NCBI GenBank assembly: GCA_945861715.1
Contig: CAMAVK010000001.1
Coordinates: forward strand, 458,908-522,907
Length of the DNA: 64,000 nt
Direction of reading: 5' to 3'
Source of the DNA: Candidatus Woesearchaeota archaeon
Lineage (GTDB): Archaea; Nanobdellota; Nanobdellia; Woesearchaeales; GW2011-AR9
A program made the position numbers and the translations under genes. Shown here piece after piece: positions 15,829-54,000 of the stretch. How positions within the stretch are numbered: position 1 is the first letter of the stretch; every line of letters starts with the position of its first letter. The notes under the pieces were generated by a model. It was not told where the DNA came from. It made no database searches and was given only the letters and a program-made list of their open reading frames with translations.

Positions 15829-16080
15829 ATGCCTGCAGTACTTGATGGACTATTGGATAAAAAGACCGCATCATTACTGAAAGTTCTTTTAAAAAATAAA
15901 GACGAAATATACCATCTCCACTCTCTTTCTAGGGCGTCAAAAGTACCCGTCTCCTCTACTTCTAGAATTGTAACTAAACTAATCAAATTAGATCTGATAA
16001 CAACAAGAAAAGTCGGCAATATGGTCCTATTCCAAGCATCAAATTCTGAAAAAGCAAAATTGGTGGGTGATTTGCTATGA
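15829..16080 (+). CDS. Small winged-helix (MarR/ArsR-like) transcriptional regulator
   Basis: 83 aa. Helix-turn-helix region IYHLHSLSRASKVPVSSTSRIVTKLIKLDLITTRK followed by a beta-wing (VGNMVLFQ). Its TGA stop overlaps the start of the giant surface-protein gene (ATGA). Confidence 0.5.
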   Translation: MPAVLDGLLDKKTASLLKVLLKNKDEIYHLHSLSRASKVPVSSTSRIVTKLIKLDLITTRKVGNMVLFQASNSEKAKLVGDLL

Positions 16081-19000
16081 GTCAATCCACTAAGTCTACC
16101 AAAACCGTACTCCGCCTAAGTTTATTCATAATCATCCTCCTCCTCACATCAGCAACCGTACTCGCAGCTACAAAACCTATTGCTGGCTATATTTTCAAAA
16201 CAGACGGAACAACAGTGGCACCAAACGCGAGCGTACGAGTCTACGTAAACCAAGCTTCCGTGAGTGCAGCAAACCCGTGCTACACAAACCCTGCTGTTCT
16301 CTCCGGTGTAGATGGTTCATGGTCTACTAATCTCGCAAATTTGAAGCGAGCAGATAATGGGAATGATTGCTCTGGATTTTGGGCAACAGGGGATGCAATA
16401 TGGGCAAACGCCATTGGCCAAAACGTAACTCCTGAACACGGAAACCTTTCCACTGCAAATACAACCATCGCATCAGGAACCGGACTCCAGTATCTCTCAA
16501 ACGTTAGTCTCCCTGCAGGGCCGGATCGAATCGCACCAGTAATTCGTCTCATCGCCCCACCAAACGCCACCAACAACACCAACGGCTCCATCCTCTTTCA
16601 ATACAATGTAACCGATGACAGTCTCATTAGTAATTGTAGTGTACTATTCAACGGTACAATAAATACGACAAATACCTCTATAACCAGAAACATCACCATG
16701 AACTTCAGCCTCACCAATATTGCTGATGGCCACTATAATTGGTCTGTTGGATGTTATGATAACGTTACAAATTATAACACCAGTATTGAGACATGGTTCC
16801 TAAACGTATCGAAAGTAGGTCATTATAACTTAAGTCTTGTAACCCCGACGTCCAACACCAGCGTTGAACAGAATCAATTTTTTACTTTTACTATGCAAGT
16901 GAAATGTTATGATGGAAGCTGTGGTGATACAAATGCAAGTCTTGACCCTATTATTCTTGGTGAAGATCAAACAATTGTCTCCCAGAACAAATTTCACTCA
17001 CAAGGATTCTTTGAAAAAATATGGTCTTACTTCGCTGAATTCTTTTCAGGGAATCTCATCACCGGGCAAGTAACAGGTGCGCTCGTTCCCATGGTACCAA
17101 CCACACCATTTTACACTAATATGTCAAACCCTATGAACCTAAGTAATGTAAGTTGTCTAGCTAATATGGCTCAAAATAGCGCATGCAACGTAACATGGTA
17201 TGTCAACGCGTCAGGTCCTGTTGGGACCGTAGCAGAGTTCTGGGCATTTACTAACTCTACCATATACACCGCGCTGAACAATGAGACTCCACATTTATTT
17301 ATCAGTATAGTTGAATCAATCCCACCTGCTATTATTAATTACACTCCTCGAGGAGAGACTTTTAATGTCACCCAATTAATAGAAATCAGTCTTAACACCA
17401 CCGACCCCCAAAACATATCTTTTGTAAAAGCAAACATTACATATCCTAATGCAACCGTTGACCTAATTAATCTTACTCGTGTGGGTACTACCGATAAATA
17501 CAACAGCAGTTACACCATCCCGCCAAGAACTGGGTTCTACCTAATCAAATTTTGGGTAAATGATACAGGAAACAACATCAACGGAACAACTCAAACAAAT
17601 TTCACAGGTCAAGATATTGTCCCTCCTAACGTTACCACCCTCCTCCCTGCAATTTCAACAAGCTACAACACATCCCAAATAATTCAAATATCACTTAACG
17701 CAACTGACGTAACAAATATCAGCACAACGTTTGCCACCATCACTTCACCCAACAGCACCAAAACAAACGTCACCCTAAGTCGCCAAGGCACTACATACAA
17801 ATACAATGGAACCTACACTGTTCCTCCCCGCATTGGCACATTCAACATTACCTTCTTTGCAAATGATAGTAAAAATAATATCAACAATAGTGAAGTTTCA
17901 AACTTCACGGTACTCGATGGCGAATATCCTCGCCTAGCAACCATTGTAGAAGCCCCAACTGACCCGGCAACATACGTATATAATCAAACATATTTTTTCA
18001 ACATTACTATCACTGACAATATTGGAATAAACAATGTTATCATGCAATTCAATAACACAAATTACACCGCAGAAATAAAAAATCAAAGCACCATTTTTCA
18101 ATTCAACATCTCAGATCTCGCAGCCGCAACATACAATTATGTCTGGTATGCAAATGACACCAGTGGCTACATCAATTCTACTTCCTCTACCTACACCATC
18201 AGCAAAGCATCATCAACTGTAAATCTAACTTTATATGGAAATGATAGTAACACCAATATCAGTGTAAACACACCAGTTAACCTAAGCGGGGTACGAATCG
18301 CCGGTGATGGACAAATAGAATTACTTCAAAACGGATCCGTTCTCTCACTTGGCAATACAAGTACCTCCTCGAACCAAACCTATACCACGCTAACTTCATA
18401 TAATATCAGCATTCGACACAATTCTACTCAAAATTTCACTGCAAGTCAAGAAGATCATGTCCTCGCAATAAAGGATTATATTTCACCAAACGTCACCCTT
18501 GTAACCGTAAACGCTTCAAGCGTCAATCAAACGCAACATGTCAGAATAAACGCAACGATAATTGACAATCTTCAAATTGATTCCATTAAAACACAAATTT
18601 GGTTCCCCAACGGATCGGTCCAAAATTTCACCATGAATAACATCAGCTCTTCGTTTAATACCACCTATATCACAATTCTCACATCAAACATAGGAAACCA
18701 CACTGCACAAATTCTAGCTAACGATACCTCCGGAAATAGAAATACCACTCAAAACGTAAGCTTTTGGGTGTATGACATAACTCCACCTGCAGTTACTTTA
18801 CTCATACCCGCAAATCAAACTACTCTAGGAAATGGGACTACTATCCAATTGTCATCAACAACGACAGATAATATCGCAATATCGAGTACATATGCAAATA
18901 TTACTTACCCAAATAATTCCATTCAATCTATCCCCCTCACACTTACCACCGCATCAAAATATAATTCATCCTTGCTTCTAGGTCAACAAACAGGAATTTA

Positions 19001-21080
19001 TCTGATGCAAATATTTTCCAATGATTCAAGTAACAACATCAATGCAACAGAACAAGTATTGTTCTATGTGAACGAGACGGACGGTCCTCCAAATGTAACT
19101 CTAGTTGCAGTAAACGTATCAAGCGTTAATCAAACGCAGCATGTCAGAATCAATGCAACTGTCATGGATGCAATAAGTGTAGATACCGTTAAAACGCAAA
19201 TATACTTCCCTAATGGCTCAATCCAAAATTTCACGATGAGTAATGTGAGCTCCTACTATAACACCACCTATATCACAATTCTCACATCAAACATTGGAAA
19301 TCATACCGCGCAAATTATTGCAAACGATACCAATGGAAATAGAAATACCACTCAAAACGTCACCTTTTGGGTATACGACATCACACCACCCAATGTCACA
19401 GCTTTAATCCCGACAAATCAATCCACTGTATTCACCGGAACCAGCATTCAAATCGCAGCGAATGTAACAGACAACACTGCTCTCTCAACAGTATACGCAA
19501 ATATCACCTATCCAAATAGTTCAATCACCTCATTGCCCTTATCGTTAGCAACAGGTGCCAAATACAACTCTACTCTCACCTTGGGTTCATACAATGGAAC
19601 CTACACACTCCTTATCTTTTCCAATGATAGCAGCAATAATATCAACGCCACCGAACAAACACAGTTCTTTGTAAACACCTCAGATAATGCGCCAGTTGTA
19701 ACCTTGCTAAACCCTGCAGACAGCTATACGAATACTACTTCTACCTATCTTGAGATGAACTTTTCATGTTCTGCAACCGATGATTACGCCCTACGCAATA
19801 TCTCATTATACCTAAGCAATCCATCAAACACCAATTTTAGTCAGAATCAAAGTACTCTTCTTAATGGTACAACTAACTCTACTTCATGGCTACTTAATCT
19901 TACCCAAGGCTCCTTCACCTGGAACTGTCAAGCAATTGACAACAGTACTCAACTCGATTGGGCATCAAACCGCAGTATAACCCTATCTGCCCCTTCTTCC
20001 TCAAGCAGCAGTTCAAGCTCCTCCGGTGGTGGTGGTGGAAGTAGTTCAAGTACATCGAGTAGTAGTGGCGGGCCTATACCACAAAAAAGAGTAGATGTAA
20101 ATGCAACCCCGACATGTCTATGGAATGAAAGCATCATCGCAGGAAATTGCATGTACAATGAAAGTAATGTATTGCTAAATGCTTCACCTACTGAGATCCC
20201 AATAAACTCAAACCAAGGAATATTCAATTTAGTGGGAAGAGCATTTGATATAAACATCCATGCCTTTGGTCTAGACCTTAGTCTACTTTACATTGCCTTG
20301 ATGGTATTCCTCTTGGGCTTATTAGTGCTTTTACTGACCAGACGAAAACGACCATACCTTATTATTCAAGCACCAACCATGGCCGCCCCCGGTGACACCT
20401 TTGATGTAAACGTCAAACTAGGTAATGATTATCGGCCAGTTGTATTAAGAATTTGGAGTATTTTCGTTCCTGAGGGAGAAGTTGGTCTGCTAAACATCAA
20501 AAATATTATCGGCAAAGGCCCAACCTATCGTCTCGAAGTAGACCGATCAGAAATAAGGCGTGGCACCATTCCTGTGGCTATACCAGCACAGTTTATGCCG
20601 GGGAAATATCGAATCATCACGTGTGTGCGGTGGGAATACAAGAAGACAAATGAGCCAAAATCCCTTGTAGAAAAAGGAACAACCCAAGAAAAAATAAAAA
20701 TAACTGCTCATCAAAATAAAATAACGGTTACCCAAACTAAGTTACCTATCCCACCTGCGCTTCTAGTATTAGTGGGTAAACGAAGTCGGCTTCCAGAAAA
20801 TATCGCAATCAACTTACAAACCATGCGTGAAAAGCTCGCGCCAACTGCAAACATTGTTGAACTCGCAAGAACTCGTGAAGAAATTGTACTACGTATGCAC
20901 CAAGCAGAGAAAATGCATAACTTGCGTCTCAAAAAGTTAGAAATCGAAGAGGATATGCGACACACCGAAGAAGAAGGAGTACTACAGCTTCAGTTAACGA
21001 GACTAAATAGTACATTAACTAAGAATGCGGCACCCGTGCAACGCTCAACACAAACACCCACAAAAAGGGACAGAAAGTAA
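16077..21080 (+). CDS. Giant (1667 aa) heavily sequon-decorated surface protein: signal peptide, conserved N-terminal module, about 12 beta-sandwich repeats, poly-Ser/Gly stalk, single TM, ~260-aa cytoplasmic tail with a coiled coil
   Basis: Signal peptide LRLSLFIIILLLTSATVLA. N-terminal module homologous to the 13622 protein (ANPCYTNPAVLSGVDGSWSTNLANL...CSGFWATGDAIW...SGTGLQYL). N-x-S/T sequons occur every ~5-10 residues. Stalk SSSSSSSSSGGGGGSSSSTSSSSGG. TM LLYIALMVFLLGLLVLLLTRRKRP. The cytoplasmic tail ends in a K/E/R-rich coiled coil. Confidence 0.7.
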   Translation: MSQSTKSTKTVLRLSLFIIILLLTSATVLAATKPIAGYIFKTDGTTVAPNASVRVYVNQASVSAANPCYTNPAVLSGVDGSWSTNLANLKRADNGNDCSGFWATGDAIWANAIGQNVTPEHGNLSTANTTIASGTGLQYLSNVSLPAGPDRIAPVIRLIAPPNATNNTNGSILFQYNVTDDSLISNCSVLFNGTINTTNTSITRNITMNFSLTNIADGHYNWSVGCYDNVTNYNTSIETWFLNVSKVGHYNLSLVTPTSNTSVEQNQFFTFTMQVKCYDGSCGDTNASLDPIILGEDQTIVSQNKFHSQGFFEKIWSYFAEFFSGNLITGQVTGALVPMVPTTPFYTNMSNPMNLSNVSCLANMAQNSACNVTWYVNASGPVGTVAEFWAFTNSTIYTALNNETPHLFISIVESIPPAIINYTPRGETFNVTQLIEISLNTTDPQNISFVKANITYPNATVDLINLTRVGTTDKYNSSYTIPPRTGFYLIKFWVNDTGNNINGTTQTNFTGQDIVPPNVTTLLPAISTSYNTSQIIQISLNATDVTNISTTFATITSPNSTKTNVTLSRQGTTYKYNGTYTVPPRIGTFNITFFANDSKNNINNSEVSNFTVLDGEYPRLATIVEAPTDPATYVYNQTYFFNITITDNIGINNVIMQFNNTNYTAEIKNQSTIFQFNISDLAAATYNYVWYANDTSGYINSTSSTYTISKASSTVNLTLYGNDSNTNISVNTPVNLSGVRIAGDGQIELLQNGSVLSLGNTSTSSNQTYTTLTSYNISIRHNSTQNFTASQEDHVLAIKDYISPNVTLVTVNASSVNQTQHVRINATIIDNLQIDSIKTQIWFPNGSVQNFTMNNISSSFNTTYITILTSNIGNHTAQILANDTSGNRNTTQNVSFWVYDITPPAVTLLIPANQTTLGNGTTIQLSSTTTDNIAISSTYANITYPNNSIQSIPLTLTTASKYNSSLLLGQQTGIYLMQIFSNDSSNNINATEQVLFYVNETDGPPNVTLVAVNVSSVNQTQHVRINATVMDAISVDTVKTQIYFPNGSIQNFTMSNVSSYYNTTYITILTSNIGNHTAQIIANDTNGNRNTTQNVTFWVYDITPPNVTALIPTNQSTVFTGTSIQIAANVTDNTALSTVYANITYPNSSITSLPLSLATGAKYNSTLTLGSYNGTYTLLIFSNDSSNNINATEQTQFFVNTSDNAPVVTLLNPADSYTNTTSTYLEMNFSCSATDDYALRNISLYLSNPSNTNFSQNQSTLLNGTTNSTSWLLNLTQGSFTWNCQAIDNSTQLDWASNRSITLSAPSSSSSSSSSSGGGGGSSSSTSSSSGGPIPQKRVDVNATPTCLWNESIIAGNCMYNESNVLLNASPTEIPINSNQGIFNLVGRAFDINIHAFGLDLSLLYIALMVFLLGLLVLLLTRRKRPYLIIQAPTMAAPGDTFDVNVKLGNDYRPVVLRIWSIFVPEGEVGLLNIKNIIGKGPTYRLEVDRSEIRRGTIPVAIPAQFMPGKYRIITCVRWEYKKTNEPKSLVEKGTTQEKIKITAHQNKITVTQTKLPIPPALLVLVGKRSRLPENIAINLQTMREKLAPTANIVELARTREEIVLRMHQAEKMHNLRLKKLEIEEDMRHTEEEGVLQLQLTRLNSTLTKNAAPVQRSTQTPTKRDRK
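18485..19690 (+). repeat. Near-identical 603-nt (201-aa) tandem duplication inside the giant surface-protein gene
   Basis: Unit 1 (NVTLVTVNASSVNQTQHVRINATIIDN...ITILTSNIGNHTAQILANDTSGNRNTTQNVSFWVYDITPP...FSNDSSNNINATEQ) is repeated immediately as unit 2 (NVTLVAVNVSSVNQTQHVRINATVMDA...ITILTSNIGNHTAQIIANDTNGNRNTTQNVTFWVYDITPP...FSNDSSNNINATEQ). Nucleotide strings such as caagcgt(c/t)aatcaaacgca(a/g)catgtcagaat(a/c)aa(c/t)gcaac recur at 18519 and 19122. Confidence 0.85.
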
Positions 21081-25960: not shown

Positions 25961-26072
25961 CGGGCCCTGAGGGATTTGAACCCCCGACCTCGTGGTACCT
26001 ATCAATTACTCATTCCTTTCGGATTAGCAATGTTAAGAGCCACGCGCTCTAGCCAGCCTGAGCTAAGAGCCC
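25961..26072 (-). tRNA. tRNA-Lys (anticodon CUU) with a ~37-nt canonical-position intron (after nt 37). CCA is not encoded.
   Basis: Minus-strand read GGGCTCT-TA-GCTC-AGGCTGGCTA-GAGC-G-CGTGG-CTCTTA[intron ACATTGC...GATAGGT]A-CCACG-AGGTC-GGGGG-TTCAAAT-CCCTC-AGGGCCC-G. All four stems pair, U33 and A37 are present, and the T-loop is TTCAAAT. Exons are at about 26034-26072 and 25961-25996. Confidence 0.85.
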
Positions 26073-38191: not shown

Positions 38192-39274
38192 ATGATCTAC
38201 GCTACCCTCACCCAAGAAAACCGTACAGAGAACTCGTTTAGTTTAGAAGGAAACACTGCAATTGGTCGCAAGCTCCTTCCGGATAAGGACTTATTCGAGT
38301 TATGGGAACGAAGAATAACCTCTTCCAAGCACAAAAATAATGGTGCCACACGCATGGCGCCCATTTCAGTTACAGAATTACAACATCAATATTCTCAAAA
38401 AAATCTCGATCTCATAATCAGCGACAATATTGACGTATCGCGTCGTCATCTCCTATTTTGTGTGCCTAACTGGGGAATGAATGCCTATCACGTAATCGAT
38501 TTATTCAGTTATTATGGCACCACCGTAAACGGCGAAAACTTAACTCCTGCGGTGCCTAAAAAGGTAAGCCATGGTGATAGAATCACAATTCTAGGCAAAA
38601 CTGAAATCCCTTTTATATTCAAAGAAGTAGAACGCGTTACAAAGTATGAAGCAATTATTATCGCGAACCCAGACGGGACCTTAGACTGTAATGAGCCTAT
38701 CGCAGCGGAACTAGAAGATTTACTTCTCAAACGTAATTTCAAAGTAGACACATTAAAATCAAATGTTCAACTTAAACAAGTAACAAATAGTATAGCACAA
38801 AAAGCGAGATCATTACGGTCGCACGACTATTTATTATTTCTGTATCTTGGGCATGGATCAAAAAACGGCGAATTACGTTTTGCAGATAATGGTTTCGTGC
38901 ATGCCTCAAATTTATACTCCTCACTAAGTACTGTTCCCGCAAAAAAAATCATTTTATTAGATTGTTGTTATGGGAAGAATTTTCTCATTCCTGAGATTCC
39001 TCTGAACTCAGCTGTTGCCGTAAGTACATCGAGGCTAGATCTATCTTACACCAATACGTTTACCAAGGGATTAATTCGACGATTACAAGACCCGAGGGGG
39101 GGTTATTTTGAGCGTGTGATTGATGATGCTTGCCATTATGCCGAAGTAGAATTACGTCTATGTGGGATGGAACCCGGAACAAAAGCCTCAATGGTCACTT
39201 ATTTTAATACAGCAAGAGATGAAGATCGTGAACAAGCTCGCAAAGATATGAATAATTTTATTCATCAAAAATAA
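38192..39274 (+). CDS. FHA domain - caspase-like (peptidase C14, metacaspase/orthocaspase) fusion protein
   Basis: N-terminal FHA signatures: NTAIGRK, VSRRHLLF, GTTVNGENL, GDRITILG. C-terminal C14 catalytic dyad: His in LFLYLGHGSKNGELRF and Cys in KKIILLDCCYGKN (compare the DCCHSG of metacaspases). Confidence 0.65.
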   Translation: MIYATLTQENRTENSFSLEGNTAIGRKLLPDKDLFELWERRITSSKHKNNGATRMAPISVTELQHQYSQKNLDLIISDNIDVSRRHLLFCVPNWGMNAYHVIDLFSYYGTTVNGENLTPAVPKKVSHGDRITILGKTEIPFIFKEVERVTKYEAIIIANPDGTLDCNEPIAAELEDLLLKRNFKVDTLKSNVQLKQVTNSIAQKARSLRSHDYLLFLYLGHGSKNGELRFADNGFVHASNLYSSLSTVPAKKIILLDCCYGKNFLIPEIPLNSAVAVSTSRLDLSYTNTFTKGLIRRLQDPRGGYFERVIDDACHYAEVELRLCGMEPGTKASMVTYFNTARDEDREQARKDMNNFIHQK

Positions 39275-41915: not shown

Positions 41916-42359
41916 ATGGCATACGCTCGATACAAACAAAAATGTGCAATCTGCAAAACCAACATGGTTGAAATGTTTTCTGCTCGTCAATTTCCTATCT
42001 GTTCACCCTGTCAAATGAAACGTATTAATCAAGAGATAAAAGATCCAAAATTCAAAAAGTTTTTTGATATCGGCCAAGATCTCTATGAAAAATCCTCGTT
42101 CTTACGAAATATCAAAGAAGCATACTTGCGCTATGACTCATTAACTGAAAAACAAACCGAGGCATTTCTCAAGGCAGTTGAAGACGTCAAAAAACCACGC
42201 GAAGTAAAAGAGCCAAAGCCAATCGAGTTTGATGTACCAATTGATAGTAATATTTCGATGCGTGCTCAACGTGTTGCGAAAAAAGCTGCCACCGCCGCAA
42301 AGAAAGTCGCCAAAGCCGCAAAACTAGCCGAAGACAAAAAAGGAAAAGACGAAGAGTAG
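41916..42359 (+). CDS. Zinc-ribbon protein with a Lys/Ala-rich (histone-H1-like) C-terminal tail
   Basis: Zinc ribbon CAICKT...CSPCQM. Tail AQRVAKKAATAAKKVAKAAKLAEDKKGKDEE. Confidence 0.4.
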   Translation: MAYARYKQKCAICKTNMVEMFSARQFPICSPCQMKRINQEIKDPKFKKFFDIGQDLYEKSSFLRNIKEAYLRYDSLTEKQTEAFLKAVEDVKKPREVKEPKPIEFDVPIDSNISMRAQRVAKKAATAAKKVAKAAKLAEDKKGKDEE

Positions 42360-42432: not shown

Positions 42433-43632
42433 ATGAAAAAGGTGGTTGATGCTGTTATAATTATTATACTTCTATTATCACTCACATCCATCGCACTAGC
42501 TGACACCTATATCAGTGGAGTTTTTCCCACTATCAATAGTACCAACATCAACGCGTTTCAAGTCAATGGAAATGCAGCACAAACCGGAAGTGTACTCCGG
42601 CTTACTCCCGCGTCTAACAATCAAGCAGGTAGTGCATTTTGGAAATACAAAACGGATTTTCCTGCCAACCGCTCATTTGCAACTTATTTCTCATTTCAAA
42701 TAACAAGCACGGGTGGCGGCGGAGCTGACGGATTAGTCTTTGTCATACAACCCGATTCAAATACGGCTGGATCTTCAGGAGGCGGCCTTGGATTCTCCGG
42801 CATACCAAACGCATTTGGTGTCGAATTTGATACCTATCAAAACGGTGACTATGGTGATCCGAACGGGAATCACATTGGTATTGATTTAAGCCCGGGTGGT
42901 TTGGGCAGCGTTACTTCTGTAGCCACTGTTACCGTTGACTCAATCAACTCCTCGTGGTCTCTTGAAGATGGGGCAATATATCACACCTGGGTTGAATATA
43001 ACGGGAGTACCCAAAATATTACTATTCGCTTGAACCGCAACAACAATACTCGTCCAATAAATGCAGTATTAAATTACACCACAAACCTCTCCAATGTATT
43101 TGCACAGCAAGCGTACGTCGGCTTTACTGCTGCTACTGGCGGTGCCTACGAGAATCACGATATAAACAGCTTCTTCATAAATAATAACTATCTCTCTGAC
43201 GGAATAAACATTAATACGACCACTTATCAACCCTATGCATACAGGCTACTATTAAGCCAAAGTCATTTAAACGTCTCCGCCGATGGATACTCCGTCTCCG
43301 CTATAACCATCAACGCAACCGATCTTGATGGAAACTTATTACCCACTCAAAACATTTCTTTTACAACAACCTTGGGAAACATTATGCCTTTAGGGGATAA
43401 ATATGCTTCAAGTGGTTTAACTAATAGCACAGGTCAATTGTATCCAGTCTACGCTAGTTCCCATCTACCTGGAACCGCAACTATCACTGCCTCCGTCCCA
43501 GGTGGAGCATATAATATCACTACTGTGACTTTTTTAAATAGTGGTGCAACTGTTCCTGAGTTATCAACTATAGCTCTATTCCTCATCATCGCATCTGTTT
43601 TCTCTGGGTTCTTTTATATACGCACAAAATAA
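42433..43632 (+). CDS. Secreted surface protein with an N-terminal L-type (legume-lectin-like) lectin domain, a Big-like domain and a C-terminal TM anchor
   Basis: Signal peptide IIIILLLSLTSIALA. Legume-lectin signature blocks FQVNGNAAQTGSVLRLTP...NQAGSAFW...FATYFSFQITSTGGGGADGLVFVIQP...GGGLGFSGIPNAFGVEFDTYQNGDYGDPNGNHIGIDL. C-terminal ELSTIALFLIIASVFSGFFYIRTK. Confidence 0.65.
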   Translation: MKKVVDAVIIIILLLSLTSIALADTYISGVFPTINSTNINAFQVNGNAAQTGSVLRLTPASNNQAGSAFWKYKTDFPANRSFATYFSFQITSTGGGGADGLVFVIQPDSNTAGSSGGGLGFSGIPNAFGVEFDTYQNGDYGDPNGNHIGIDLSPGGLGSVTSVATVTVDSINSSWSLEDGAIYHTWVEYNGSTQNITIRLNRNNNTRPINAVLNYTTNLSNVFAQQAYVGFTAATGGAYENHDINSFFINNNYLSDGININTTTYQPYAYRLLLSQSHLNVSADGYSVSAITINATDLDGNLLPTQNISFTTTLGNIMPLGDKYASSGLTNSTGQLYPVYASSHLPGTATITASVPGGAYNITTVTFLNSGATVPELSTIALFLIIASVFSGFFYIRTK

Positions 43633-52294: not shown

Positions 52295-52402
52295 GAATAA
52301 ACAGTGACCTATTTAAAAAGATTCCGACGGCAATTGAAGACATAACAAAAATTAATAATGACGCAAGAAAATTAAAAATCTAAAAAAGAAAAAAACAAAA
52401 GC

Positions 52403-52708
52403 TTAACGCTTCTTAGCAGGAGACTTCTTAGCAGGAGCTTTCTTTACTGCCTTTTTAGCAGGAGCTTTCTTAGCAGCCTTTCGACCACGTGCCATCTTTG
52501 CTCGACAAACGTTTCCTTTACCATCGATAAAGTACAAATAACCAGATTCCTTCTTCACACCAGCTCGTGCAACAAGTTCTTTCTTGGTCTTACCTTTCTT
52601 GCGACCTGCTCTGCTCATTACAGCTCGGCAAACATCGCCATTCTTATCAACGAAGTATAGATACCCACCTTCTTTCTTTACAGCAGTTTTTGCTACGACT
52701 TCAGCCAT
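52403..52708 (-). CDS. Small basic protein: two 36-aa tandem repeats plus a histone-H1-like AKK-rich tail; putative nucleic-acid-binding protein
   Basis: Probable start at the ATG at 52706-52708 (MAEVVAK...). Repeat VAKTAVKKEGGYLYFVDKNGDVCRAVMSRAGRKKGK then VARAGVKKESGYLYFIDGKGNVCRAKMARGRKAAKK. Tail APAKKAVKKAPAKKSPAKKR. AGAGGTGGA is upstream. The track ORF (52403..52810) extends further upstream through a low-complexity leader. Confidence 0.5.
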   Translation of the reverse strand: MAEVVAKTAVKKEGGYLYFVDKNGDVCRAVMSRAGRKKGKTKKELVARAGVKKESGYLYFIDGKGNVCRAKMARGRKAAKKAPAKKAVKKAPAKKSPAKKR

Positions 52709-52839
52709 ATTACATCCACCTCTTTTTTGAAAAATTCTAAGTTGATGAAGAATTAAAAGTATATAAAGGTTTCGAGTACACTGTATTTTCCCCCGTCTAC
52801 AAAAGAACAAACATCAACCAGAATCACTGTTTTTATGCT

Positions 52840-54000
52840 CTAATTCAGCCCAGCATCAACCCGTTCAGGCAAATCAACTGCACTTACGTTTGGCACATCA
52901 ATCGTTGGTAACTCAGCCCGATTTTTCGTGATAGAAAGCCGATTGGATAAAATATTATACTCTTTACAAAATCGGAGTAAATTATCTGTCTTTCGTTTTT
53001 CTGGCTCACAATGCAGCACCTCACGAATAGAGTACGCAAACAAGTTCCGAGACTCCTTTGGTAACATCTGCATAAAAGGTGACCATGCAAGTGCTTGAAC
53101 AATGCGTTCAACATTGGATGTTTCTAAAACATTTGCTCTAATAAATTTTTCCACCTCCAATCCATCGCGTGATTCAAGTCGAGCAAATGGATACCTATCT
53201 AACAGTTCTAATGTTACAAGACCAAGTGCATAATAATCTGATTTCAAAGTTGGGCACCCTCGAGCCTGTTCGGGAGCGACATACTCAACCGTTCCACGAA
53301 ATGTCCCATCATCTGGTAAACAGTTTGCTTCCCCTAACCTTAATTGATCAATATTTCGAATGACTCGGCTTTCAAGTGACAGTGCAGCTGTATAATCAAT
53401 GAGTACAATACCTTCAGCTCCAAGCATGATATTACCTGGTTTAATGTCCAAGTGCATAAACCCGAGTGAGTGAAACGCATCAACTGCATCGGCTAGTTCA
53501 GAACAAAATTCTACTTTCTGTGATTTTCCATATGGTACTCGAAGATGCGAAAGTGGGTCTCCTTGTACCCGGTCCATCCCCACAAGTACACTTAACCACC
53601 CCTCATCATCAACAAATAATGTGTGGGAGCAATACCCCACCAGTCGTCCACCGTCCATTACCGAATATTTTTTTGCATCTTGTAAAATCCCAATCTCTTG
53701 GGTAATCATCTGCAATCGAACAAGCTCTGAGGGAAAGAAATCGACTATCTCTGCAAATGTCTCATCTCCAATCCTACGGCTAACCTCAAATTGCGAAAAT
53801 CTCCCCGTTTGACCAACATAGGTGCATTCTGAATCAATACTTCTCCCCTCACACCCTAATAACTTAATCTTCATTAATTTTGCAACTCGATAAGGCGACT
53901 CGGTGGCATATACAATCCCAAAACCACCTCTACCTAACTCTTCTCGTAGTCCAAAATATTCTTGAATTGTTTTCGTAACCATTTTATAAATAAGTATCAA
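52840..54000 (-). CDS. Eukaryotic-like Ser/Thr protein kinase (Hanks type) with a C-terminal extension
   Basis: Gly loop LGRGGFGIVY. VAIK Lys (RVAKLMK). Catalytic loop HLDIKPGNIML. APE motif EYVAPEQ. Confidence 0.8.
   Translation of the reverse strand: MILIYKMVTKTIQEYFGLREELGRGGFGIVYATESPYRVAKLMKIKLLGCEGRSIDSECTYVGQTGRFSQFEVSRRIGDETFAEIVDFFPSELVRLQMITQEIGILQDAKKYSVMDGGRLVGYCSHTLFVDDEGWLSVLVGMDRVQGDPLSHLRVPYGKSQKVEFCSELADAVDAFHSLGFMHLDIKPGNIMLGAEGIVLIDYTAALSLESRVIRNIDQLRLGEANCLPDDGTFRGTVEYVAPEQARGCPTLKSDYYALGLVTLELLDRYPFARLESRDGLEVEKFIRANVLETSNVERIVQALAWSPFMQMLPKESRNLFAYSIREVLHCEPEKRKTDNLLRFCKEYNILSNRLSITKNRAELPTIDVPNVSAVDLPERVDAGLN

Follow-up and report, generated by a model that had tools for sequence, protein, structure and literature searches.

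The window analysed here, a 64,000-nucleotide (nt) stretch of a Candidatus Woesearchaeota contig (CAMAVK010000001.1), carries on its minus strand, at positions 52403 to 52708, a gene for a basic protein of 101 amino acids (aa). The product, MAEVVAKTAVKKEGGYLYFVDKNGDVCRAVMSRAGRKKGKTKKELVARAGVKKESGYLYFIDGKGNVCRAKMARGRKAAKKAPAKKAVKKAPAKKSPAKKR, consists of two repeat units followed by a lysine-rich tail. Judged from its homologues, it belongs to an uncharacterised family that crosses domains, with members in DPANN archaea and in several bacterial phyla. We propose, largely by analogy and at a probability of about 0.45, that the window protein is a sequence-non-specific architectural protein of nucleic acid, probably of double-stranded DNA. 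An original prediction had described a small basic tandem-repeat protein with two ~36-aa repeats and an (A/P)KK tail, and each of these details was confirmed. Its interpretation is supported in part: the family is not confined to archaea, and the histone-H1-like tail is no general feature of it.

The gene and its signals

The mechanical open reading frame (ORF) of the gene extends to a TTG at 52810. The ATG at 52708-52706 is supported as the true start, because all homologues open with MAE(V/K)VAK and a Shine-Dalgarno site lies upstream of it. The gene and its putative signals are:

52403..52708, minus strand: coding sequence of the 101-aa two-repeat basic protein, from the ORF and the sequence; stop codon TAA at 52403-52405
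52716..52722, minus strand: Shine-Dalgarno-like GAGGTGG, read from the sequence, 8-14 nt upstream of the ATG
52760..52774, minus strand: archaeal promoter-like element, with a CGAAACC resembling the transcription factor B recognition element (BRE) at 52768-52774, then the TATA box TTTATATA at 52760-52767
52366..52400, minus strand: oligo-T tracts TAAGCTTTTGTTTTTTTCTTTTTTAGATTTTTAATTTTC, directly after the stop codon

The TATA box lies 52-59 nt upstream of the ATG, and the BRE-like and TATA elements together span 52-66 nt; the promoter-like element is a consensus match and not a mapped start site. Of 26 upstream regions from archaeal orthologues, about 18 have TTTAAATA or TTTATATA in a similar place, and motifs of the GGAGG or GGGGGT type occupy the position equivalent to the Shine-Dalgarno site in most archaeal orthologous loci. 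Because oligo-T is known to act in archaeal transcription termination, we interpret the tracts as a terminator signal of the archaeal type. The archaeal orthologues keep the same types of promoter, Shine-Dalgarno site and terminator. We propose that the gene forms a transcription unit by itself, driven by its own BRE/TATA promoter and equipped with a strong site for ribosome binding.

By sequence comparison the gene is real and under strong purifying selection. The ratio of nonsynonymous to synonymous substitution rates (dN/dS) was 0.036 against the closest genomic relative (L008), in a comparison in which dS is saturated. The product contains 24 Lys and 8 Arg against 7 Asp/Glu, for a net charge of +25 and an isoelectric point of 10.5. 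The gene call of P0001 (132 aa), the nearest relative of the protein, extends too far at the N-terminus.

Two repeat units with a predicted all-beta fold

The product can be divided into three segments:

52586..52708, minus strand: repeat unit 1, residues 1-41; strands 3-6, 16-20 and 26-30, then the basic linker MSRAGRKKGKT
52478..52585, minus strand: repeat unit 2, residues 42-77; strands 43-47, 57-61 and 67-71, then MARGRK
52406..52477, minus strand: lineage-specific basic tail AAKKAPAKKAVKKAPAKKSPAKKR, residues 78-101 (24 aa), predicted to be disordered

The two units (residues 2-37 and 43-77) give a 35-residue alignment that scores 115 under BLOSUM62, whereas 2000 shuffles gave 22 ± 4.5 with a maximum of 51 (z = 20.6). 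The start-to-start period is 41 aa (G15 to G56), of which about 36 aa align. At the DNA level no repeat is seen between the core units and the duplication is therefore old. Seven residues of unit 1 (G15, L17, Y18, K22, G24, M31 and R33) and five of unit 2 (G56, Y59, D62, G65 and M72) are invariant across archaea and bacteria, and R74 is nearly so.

AlphaFold2 modelled the full protein from 43 homologues with a mean predicted local distance difference test score (pLDDT) of 80.7, falling to about 50 in the tail. The core alone, modelled from 54 archaeal and bacterial sequences, reached a pLDDT of 88.7 and a predicted template modelling score (pTM) of 0.74. The predicted core is all-beta, with six strands and no helix of 4 or more residues; confidence is lower in the basic linker (residues 31-42) and in the MARGRK at the C-terminus. 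Residues Y16, Y18 and R28 and their unit-2 equivalents would be exposed, as judged from strand alternation and conservation rather than from coordinates. A Foldseek search of the PDB with the model returned nothing significant (E ≥ 0.38).

The regular period raises the question of whether each unit is a blade-like beta-meander, serving to build an oligomer such as a propeller-like ring or to act as a protein-protein adaptor, with the basic charge incidental. Forty-one residues is a typical blade length, several family members have sub-threshold Pfam matches to the propeller-like DUF5050 (E = 0.005-0.19), and some long proteins string many units together (6 in P0203 and about 7 in P0204; also P0281). 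However, every similarity to propellers is below significance, each unit has three predicted strands rather than the four of a blade, and it is hard to see, unless the partner is a polyanion, why the basic segments should be invariant and poly-basic tails gained again and again. We regard a blade-like role as improbable.

The C-terminal tail

The DNA that encodes the tail is a tandem array of a 15-nt unit in 4.7 copies (52410-52476, by Tandem Repeats Finder and direct repeats). The tail of the window protein is thus a recent slippage-type DNA array. In 329 full-length family members the C-terminal extension has a median length of 10 aa, with a 75th percentile of 16 and a 90th percentile of 32. 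Tails of 4-20 aa are about 70% K/R and essentially free of acidic residues, and some members stop directly after MARGR(K). Longer tails are built differently in different lineages: (RRKTA)n or (KKTA)n over 60-80 aa in Myxococcota, (KKAVKKA)n in Elusimicrobia, and poly-K over about 70 aa in one Nanoarchaeia genome. From these comparisons, long low-complexity basic tails, including the (A/P)KK tail in the window, have been gained separately in several lineages from different repeat units. The conserved part of the family is a core of about 76 aa, to which an H1-like tail is an accessory rather than a shared trait. That one scaffold has acquired polycationic tails repeatedly is the strongest indirect argument for a polyanion as the partner of the family.

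The description of the tail as histone-H1-like therefore stands for its composition and predicted disorder in this protein and fails as a description of the family, most members of which carry only about 4-20 basic residues behind the core, and some none. The (A/P)KK tail, predicted to be disordered, has the same composition as the tails of H1 and of H1-like proteins (Hc1, AlgP, mycobacterial HupB and NCBIfam NF038053). Linker histones H1 and H5 have in addition a winged-helix globular domain, which the window protein lacks (no Pfam match, all-beta models), and, unlike H1, most members of the two-repeat family have a much shorter Lys/Ala/Pro-rich tail or none. The window protein does not belong to the linker histones.

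A family shared by archaea and bacteria

The family is large. A word-indexed search gave at least 1696 matches, all of about 76-110 aa and 70-96% identical, and a profile hidden Markov model scan of 1.84 billion representatives gave 1152 clusters at 50% identity, 368 of them with E ≤ 1e-10. A profile built for the bacterial members matched 7968 of 8000 scored candidates. With one genome taken per GTDB species, at least 587 species carry the family, most of them Woesearchaeota or Nanoarchaeia; several Woesearchaeota/Nanoarchaeia records are titled 'uncultured Methanosarcinales', which we took as generic submitter labels. All source names encountered for family members were 'hypothetical protein'.

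Although the protein had been put forward as archaeal, the same core of about 76 aa occurs in bacteria at 48-68% identity. The bacterial members given here by L number come from the best 80 loci of the GTDB scan. They belong to Myxococcota and 'Deltaproteobacteria' (L051, L052, L058, L061 and L078), Neomarinimicrobiota (L064, L068, L071, L077, L081, L085 and L087), Elusimicrobia/Endomicrobia (L026 and L073) and Auribacterota (L039); Nitrospirota and Endomicrobium are also found among the matches to the bacterial profile. Mis-binning of DPANN contigs was considered as a source of these members and is ruled out by the surroundings of two of them. L078 lies in a 5.0-Mb Myxococcota chromosome between genes for a PBP1-type transglycosylase/transpeptidase and a sigma-54 response regulator, and L073 adjoins Maf and SurA-like genes. 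Because of these peptidoglycan, sigma-54, SurA and Maf neighbours we take the bacterial members as genuine.

Mobile elements rarely carry the family. Curated phage (50,697) and plasmid (72,556) records contained no match, and only 8 of 2.9 million viral contigs in IMG/VR did. The viral versions include single-unit (45-aa) and divergent two-unit forms (L092 1849-1989 and L093 4998-5138 from IMG/VR, and L091 on a 430-kb viral contig). A sub-branch (P0261, P0279, P0313 and P0317) has an extra conserved C-terminal domain of about 96 aa (KPTVKYLVYE...KFV.L..PA.N.R.VN) without a Pfam match.

A precomputed PF27482.1 label was attached to 7 of 120 listed archaeal homologues, for example P0120 and P0068, which are 75-78% identical to the window protein. 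The two-repeat domain may thus already be catalogued as Pfam PF27482; a literature search found no paper that mentions PF27482.

Comparison with known nucleic-acid-binding families

The homology and profile search that the original prediction had called for gave no match to any characterised family in Pfam, NCBIfam, PHROGs, PADLOC or the PDB. The Pfam search of the window protein was empty even at E ≤ 10, as was a phmmer search of PDB chains. Searches of PHROGs, PADLOC and NCBIfam gave nothing significant to a known function; only phrog_9154, whose function is unassigned, reached E = 6e-5. NF038053 (hist_H1_lk_Burk) scored 14.7 bits (E = 0.027) against a cutoff of 80, a low-complexity match only. 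Homology to histone, Alba, MC1, Sso7d, Cren7, HU, AbrB and Lsr2 was rejected by hhalign with manually entered reference sequences, and by tblastn with references entered in the same way none of these proteins is encoded in the window. Sequence comparison thus places the window protein outside the H1, Sul7d/Cren7, HU, Alba, histone and MC1 families.

The nearest likeness is to Sul7d (Sso7d/Sac7d) and Cren7, small chromatin proteins of Crenarchaeota of about 7 kDa that are very basic, rich in beta-strands and encoded by single genes. They bind DNA through a three-stranded sheet with aromatic and hydrophobic residues and have no helix-based DNA-binding motifs. The window protein resembles them in size class, basicity, beta content and single-gene organisation, and the mechanism that we propose below is by analogy to theirs, but neither fold nor profile comparison matches it to their SH3-like five-strand barrel.

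A second likeness is to AT-hook and 'RGR' motifs (HMGA, Lsr2, H-NS), as both units of the window protein end in conserved Gly-Arg segments, RAGRKKG and ARGRK. Cellular members of the family lack the Pro of the AT-hook R-G-R-P core and carry their motifs on a predicted folded beta scaffold, whereas the viral single-unit form ends in NRAGRPKK, with a GRP core like that of an AT-hook. No AT-preference can be drawn from this, because GC-rich Myxococcota also carry the family.

The nucleoid-associated proteins known so far are as a rule small, and their genes usually form operons of one gene (PMC7613761). At 101 aa, with its own promoter-like and terminator-like signals, the window protein falls within the size and operon limits (<290 aa, single-gene operon) of Hocher et al. 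2022. The candidate nucleoid-associated protein of Methanomassiliicoccales in that study, WP_019177984.1/AGI86273.1, is reported from Methanomassiliicoccales, Sphingomonadales and Rhodobacterales (PMC7613761), a distribution that differs from that of the two-repeat family.

Gene context and domain fusions

In the window the two-repeat gene is flanked by a gene for a Ser/Thr kinase on one side and by an unannotated gene on the other. No conserved operon partner was found among 830 neighbouring ORFs clustered from 87 loci, where the best neighbour was present in 18. This neighbour is a conserved protein of about 165 aa without a Pfam or PADLOC match, encoded about 60-100 nt upstream on the same strand (L067 3457-3954 and 17 other Woesearchaeota loci) and absent from the window. 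In other Woesearchaeota the two-repeat gene is often found after genes for CarS and a CDP-alcohol phosphatidyltransferase and before a Dus gene.

Fusions of the module are rare and varied. The two-unit module is joined to an HNH nuclease in P0349 (E = 2.7e-7) and to an ASCH domain in P0282 (E = 1e-8), and these two fusions favour binding to nucleic acid. Other fusions are to zinc ribbons, a GAF domain and a prokaryotic RING finger (P0233, P0324 and P0330), to a nitroreductase (P0297), and to DoxX (P0258) or transmembrane segments (P0230, P0325 and P0203). On their domain architecture, the remaining fusions show the unit to be a general building block.

The membrane fusions, together with the CarS and phosphatidyltransferase genes that precede the gene in several Woesearchaeota, bear on the possibility that the polyanion is not nucleic acid at all. 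The protein might bind to polyphosphate granules or to acidic membrane lipids and serve there as a scaffold or tether. The H1-like protein AlgP has such a role on polyphosphate granules, and Lys-rich tails like those of H1 have been described for a protein of these granules (PMC9239181). Synteny with lipid-synthesis genes is, however, limited to some lineages and absent both in the window and in bacteria. The dominant form of the protein is soluble, without a signal peptide or transmembrane segment, and the HNH and ASCH fusions do not fit a role of this kind, for which we see little likelihood.

A stronger competitor is RNA, although we still think it unlikely. The protein could be a small basic RNA- or ribosome-associated protein, such as an RNA chaperone, an accessory ribosomal protein or a hibernation-type factor, that binds ribosomal or single-stranded RNA through an exposed aromatic and basic beta face, as cold-shock domains do through their RNP motifs. 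An identity of 48-68% between archaea and bacteria would fit a universally conserved RNA target, and the G-Y-L-Y-F strand, if exposed as predicted, resembles with its basic neighbours the stacking motifs of the RNP type. The PDB profile search hit only a beta-hairpin and basic loop of ribosomal protein uS12/S23, and not significantly (best E = 0.44). The ASCH fusion points to RNA at least as much as to DNA, and many archaeal genes for small ribosomal proteins are also monocistronic. On the other side, the protein matched no chain of the solved ribosomes, the two-repeat gene lay in a ribosomal protein cluster at none of the 87 loci examined, and in the window it is about 7 kb from the L1/L10 genes and on the opposite strand. 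A patchy spread over a few bacterial phyla and DPANN archaea, with variable tails, would be unusual for a core component of translation, and the HNH fusion points to DNA.

Proposed role as an architectural protein

Binding to nucleic acid or another polyanion would fit the charge of +25, the invariant basic segments, the proposed own promoter, the lack of operon partners and the HNH and ASCH fusions. As an architectural DNA-binding protein, the window protein might work as follows. Each 41-aa unit would form a three-stranded antiparallel sheet, one face of which would present the conserved Tyr16/Tyr18 and Arg28 (Tyr57/Tyr59 and Arg69 in unit 2), taken as exposed from the alternation of residues along the strands. 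The invariant basic M-x-R-(x)-G-R-K segment that follows each unit resembles the AT-hook-like 'RGR' minor-groove motifs of prokaryotes and would reinforce binding. The two units, as a pseudo-dimer, would then offer a bivalent, sequence-non-specific surface for nucleic acid, most likely dsDNA, and the small protein would have an architectural or nucleoid-associated role. Its disordered (A/P)KK tail, fast-evolving, generated by slippage and gained independently in different lineages, would add non-specific electrostatic affinity.

Several observations weigh against this proposal. Our literature search found no binding, proteomic or transcriptomic report on any family member. The 'RGR' segment of the window protein lacks the Pro of true AT-hooks, and the residues that would face outward are deduced from strand alternation and not from coordinates. 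The unit also occurs in the fusions to DoxX or transmembrane segments, nitroreductase and zinc ribbons and in acidic multi-repeat proteins, where a part in binding nucleic acid does not suggest itself. Small size, basicity and abundance are not sufficient for a role in the nucleoid. Woesearchaeota are reported to encode histones and Alba (PMC6136690), and the two-repeat protein is therefore not needed to fill a gap in their chromatin.

A bolder version of the proposal, which we offer tentatively and consider doubtful, is that the family represents a structurally novel kind of chromatin or nucleoid protein. It would be an all-beta pseudo-dimer unrelated to histones, Alba, HU, Sul7d/Cren7 or MC1, passed by horizontal transfer between DPANN archaea and bacteria of several phyla (Myxococcota, Neomarinimicrobiota, Elusimicrobia and others), that repeatedly gains H1-like tails and would be a major genome-coating protein in mostly uncultured lineages.

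A second protein with an A/K-rich tail

The original prediction had set beside the two-repeat protein a second one in which a zinc ribbon is coupled to a similar tail:

41916..42359, plus strand: zinc-ribbon protein of 147 aa, with conserved Cys residues C10, C13, C29 and C32, a conserved helical region SFLRNIK..YLRYG.LTEKQ.EAF and a non-conserved A/K-rich tail

The protein exists as described, with its zinc ribbon and A/K-rich tail, but it is unrelated to the two-repeat protein and the likeness is one of low-complexity composition only. That the two form one family was rejected, as they have no common domain. The tail of the zinc-ribbon protein, RVAKKAATAAKKVAKAAKLAEDKKGKDEE, is A/K-rich with an acidic end and is present only in the nearest relatives. 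Its family was found in Woesearchaeota only (82 matches), most members being 93-110 aa long and without a tail, and the protein had no match in Pfam, NCBIfam, PHROGs or PADLOC. A public call of the identical protein, P0122 (131 aa; L096 1501-1896), starts at Met17, 16 residues late, and loses the first CxxC. The 147-aa form is supported because the alignment of homologues keeps that CxxC.

Directly downstream of the zinc-ribbon gene, an ORF at 42433-43632 on the plus strand encodes a legume-type (L-type) lectin domain (PF00139, E = 5e-40), a Big_1 Ig-like domain and a hydrophobic C-terminus, and its product looks like a surface protein. The arrangement of zinc-ribbon and lectin genes is kept in L096.

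Other features of the window

Two other genes belong to eukaryote-like signalling. The Ser/Thr protein kinase gene at 52840-54000 (minus strand) lies immediately upstream of the two-repeat gene, and a gene at 38192-39274 (plus strand) encodes an FHA domain and a caspase-like Peptidase_C14 domain. A 1667-aa ORF at 16077-21080 (plus strand) had no Pfam match at E ≤ 1e-4. Rfam placed a tRNA of 112 nt at 25961-26072 on the minus strand (50 bits), whereas ARAGORN found no tRNA anywhere in the window; the Rfam match is probably an intron-containing archaeal tRNA.

The GC skew over positions 1-64000 is -0.19, negative in every 4-kb bin and without a switch point. At third codon positions, read on the plus strand, it is -0.44 for plus-strand genes and -0.47 for minus-strand genes, and the strand bias is therefore independent of the direction of transcription. 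Such a strand compositional bias is unusually strong for an archaeon, and it would confound a codon-usage comparison of the two-repeat gene with the L1/L10 genes on the opposite strand.

Implications

The 76-aa core is confidently predicted and easy to express, and the DNA-binding hypothesis is thus directly testable. Should the protein instead bind RNA or the ribosome, it would be an unrecognised translation-associated factor common to DPANN archaea and some bacteria. If DNA binding is true, the family would be a widespread and structurally new class of small architectural protein across both prokaryotic domains, mostly in lineages that have never been cultured, and it would provide a clean natural case of H1-like low-complexity tails regained on one scaffold.
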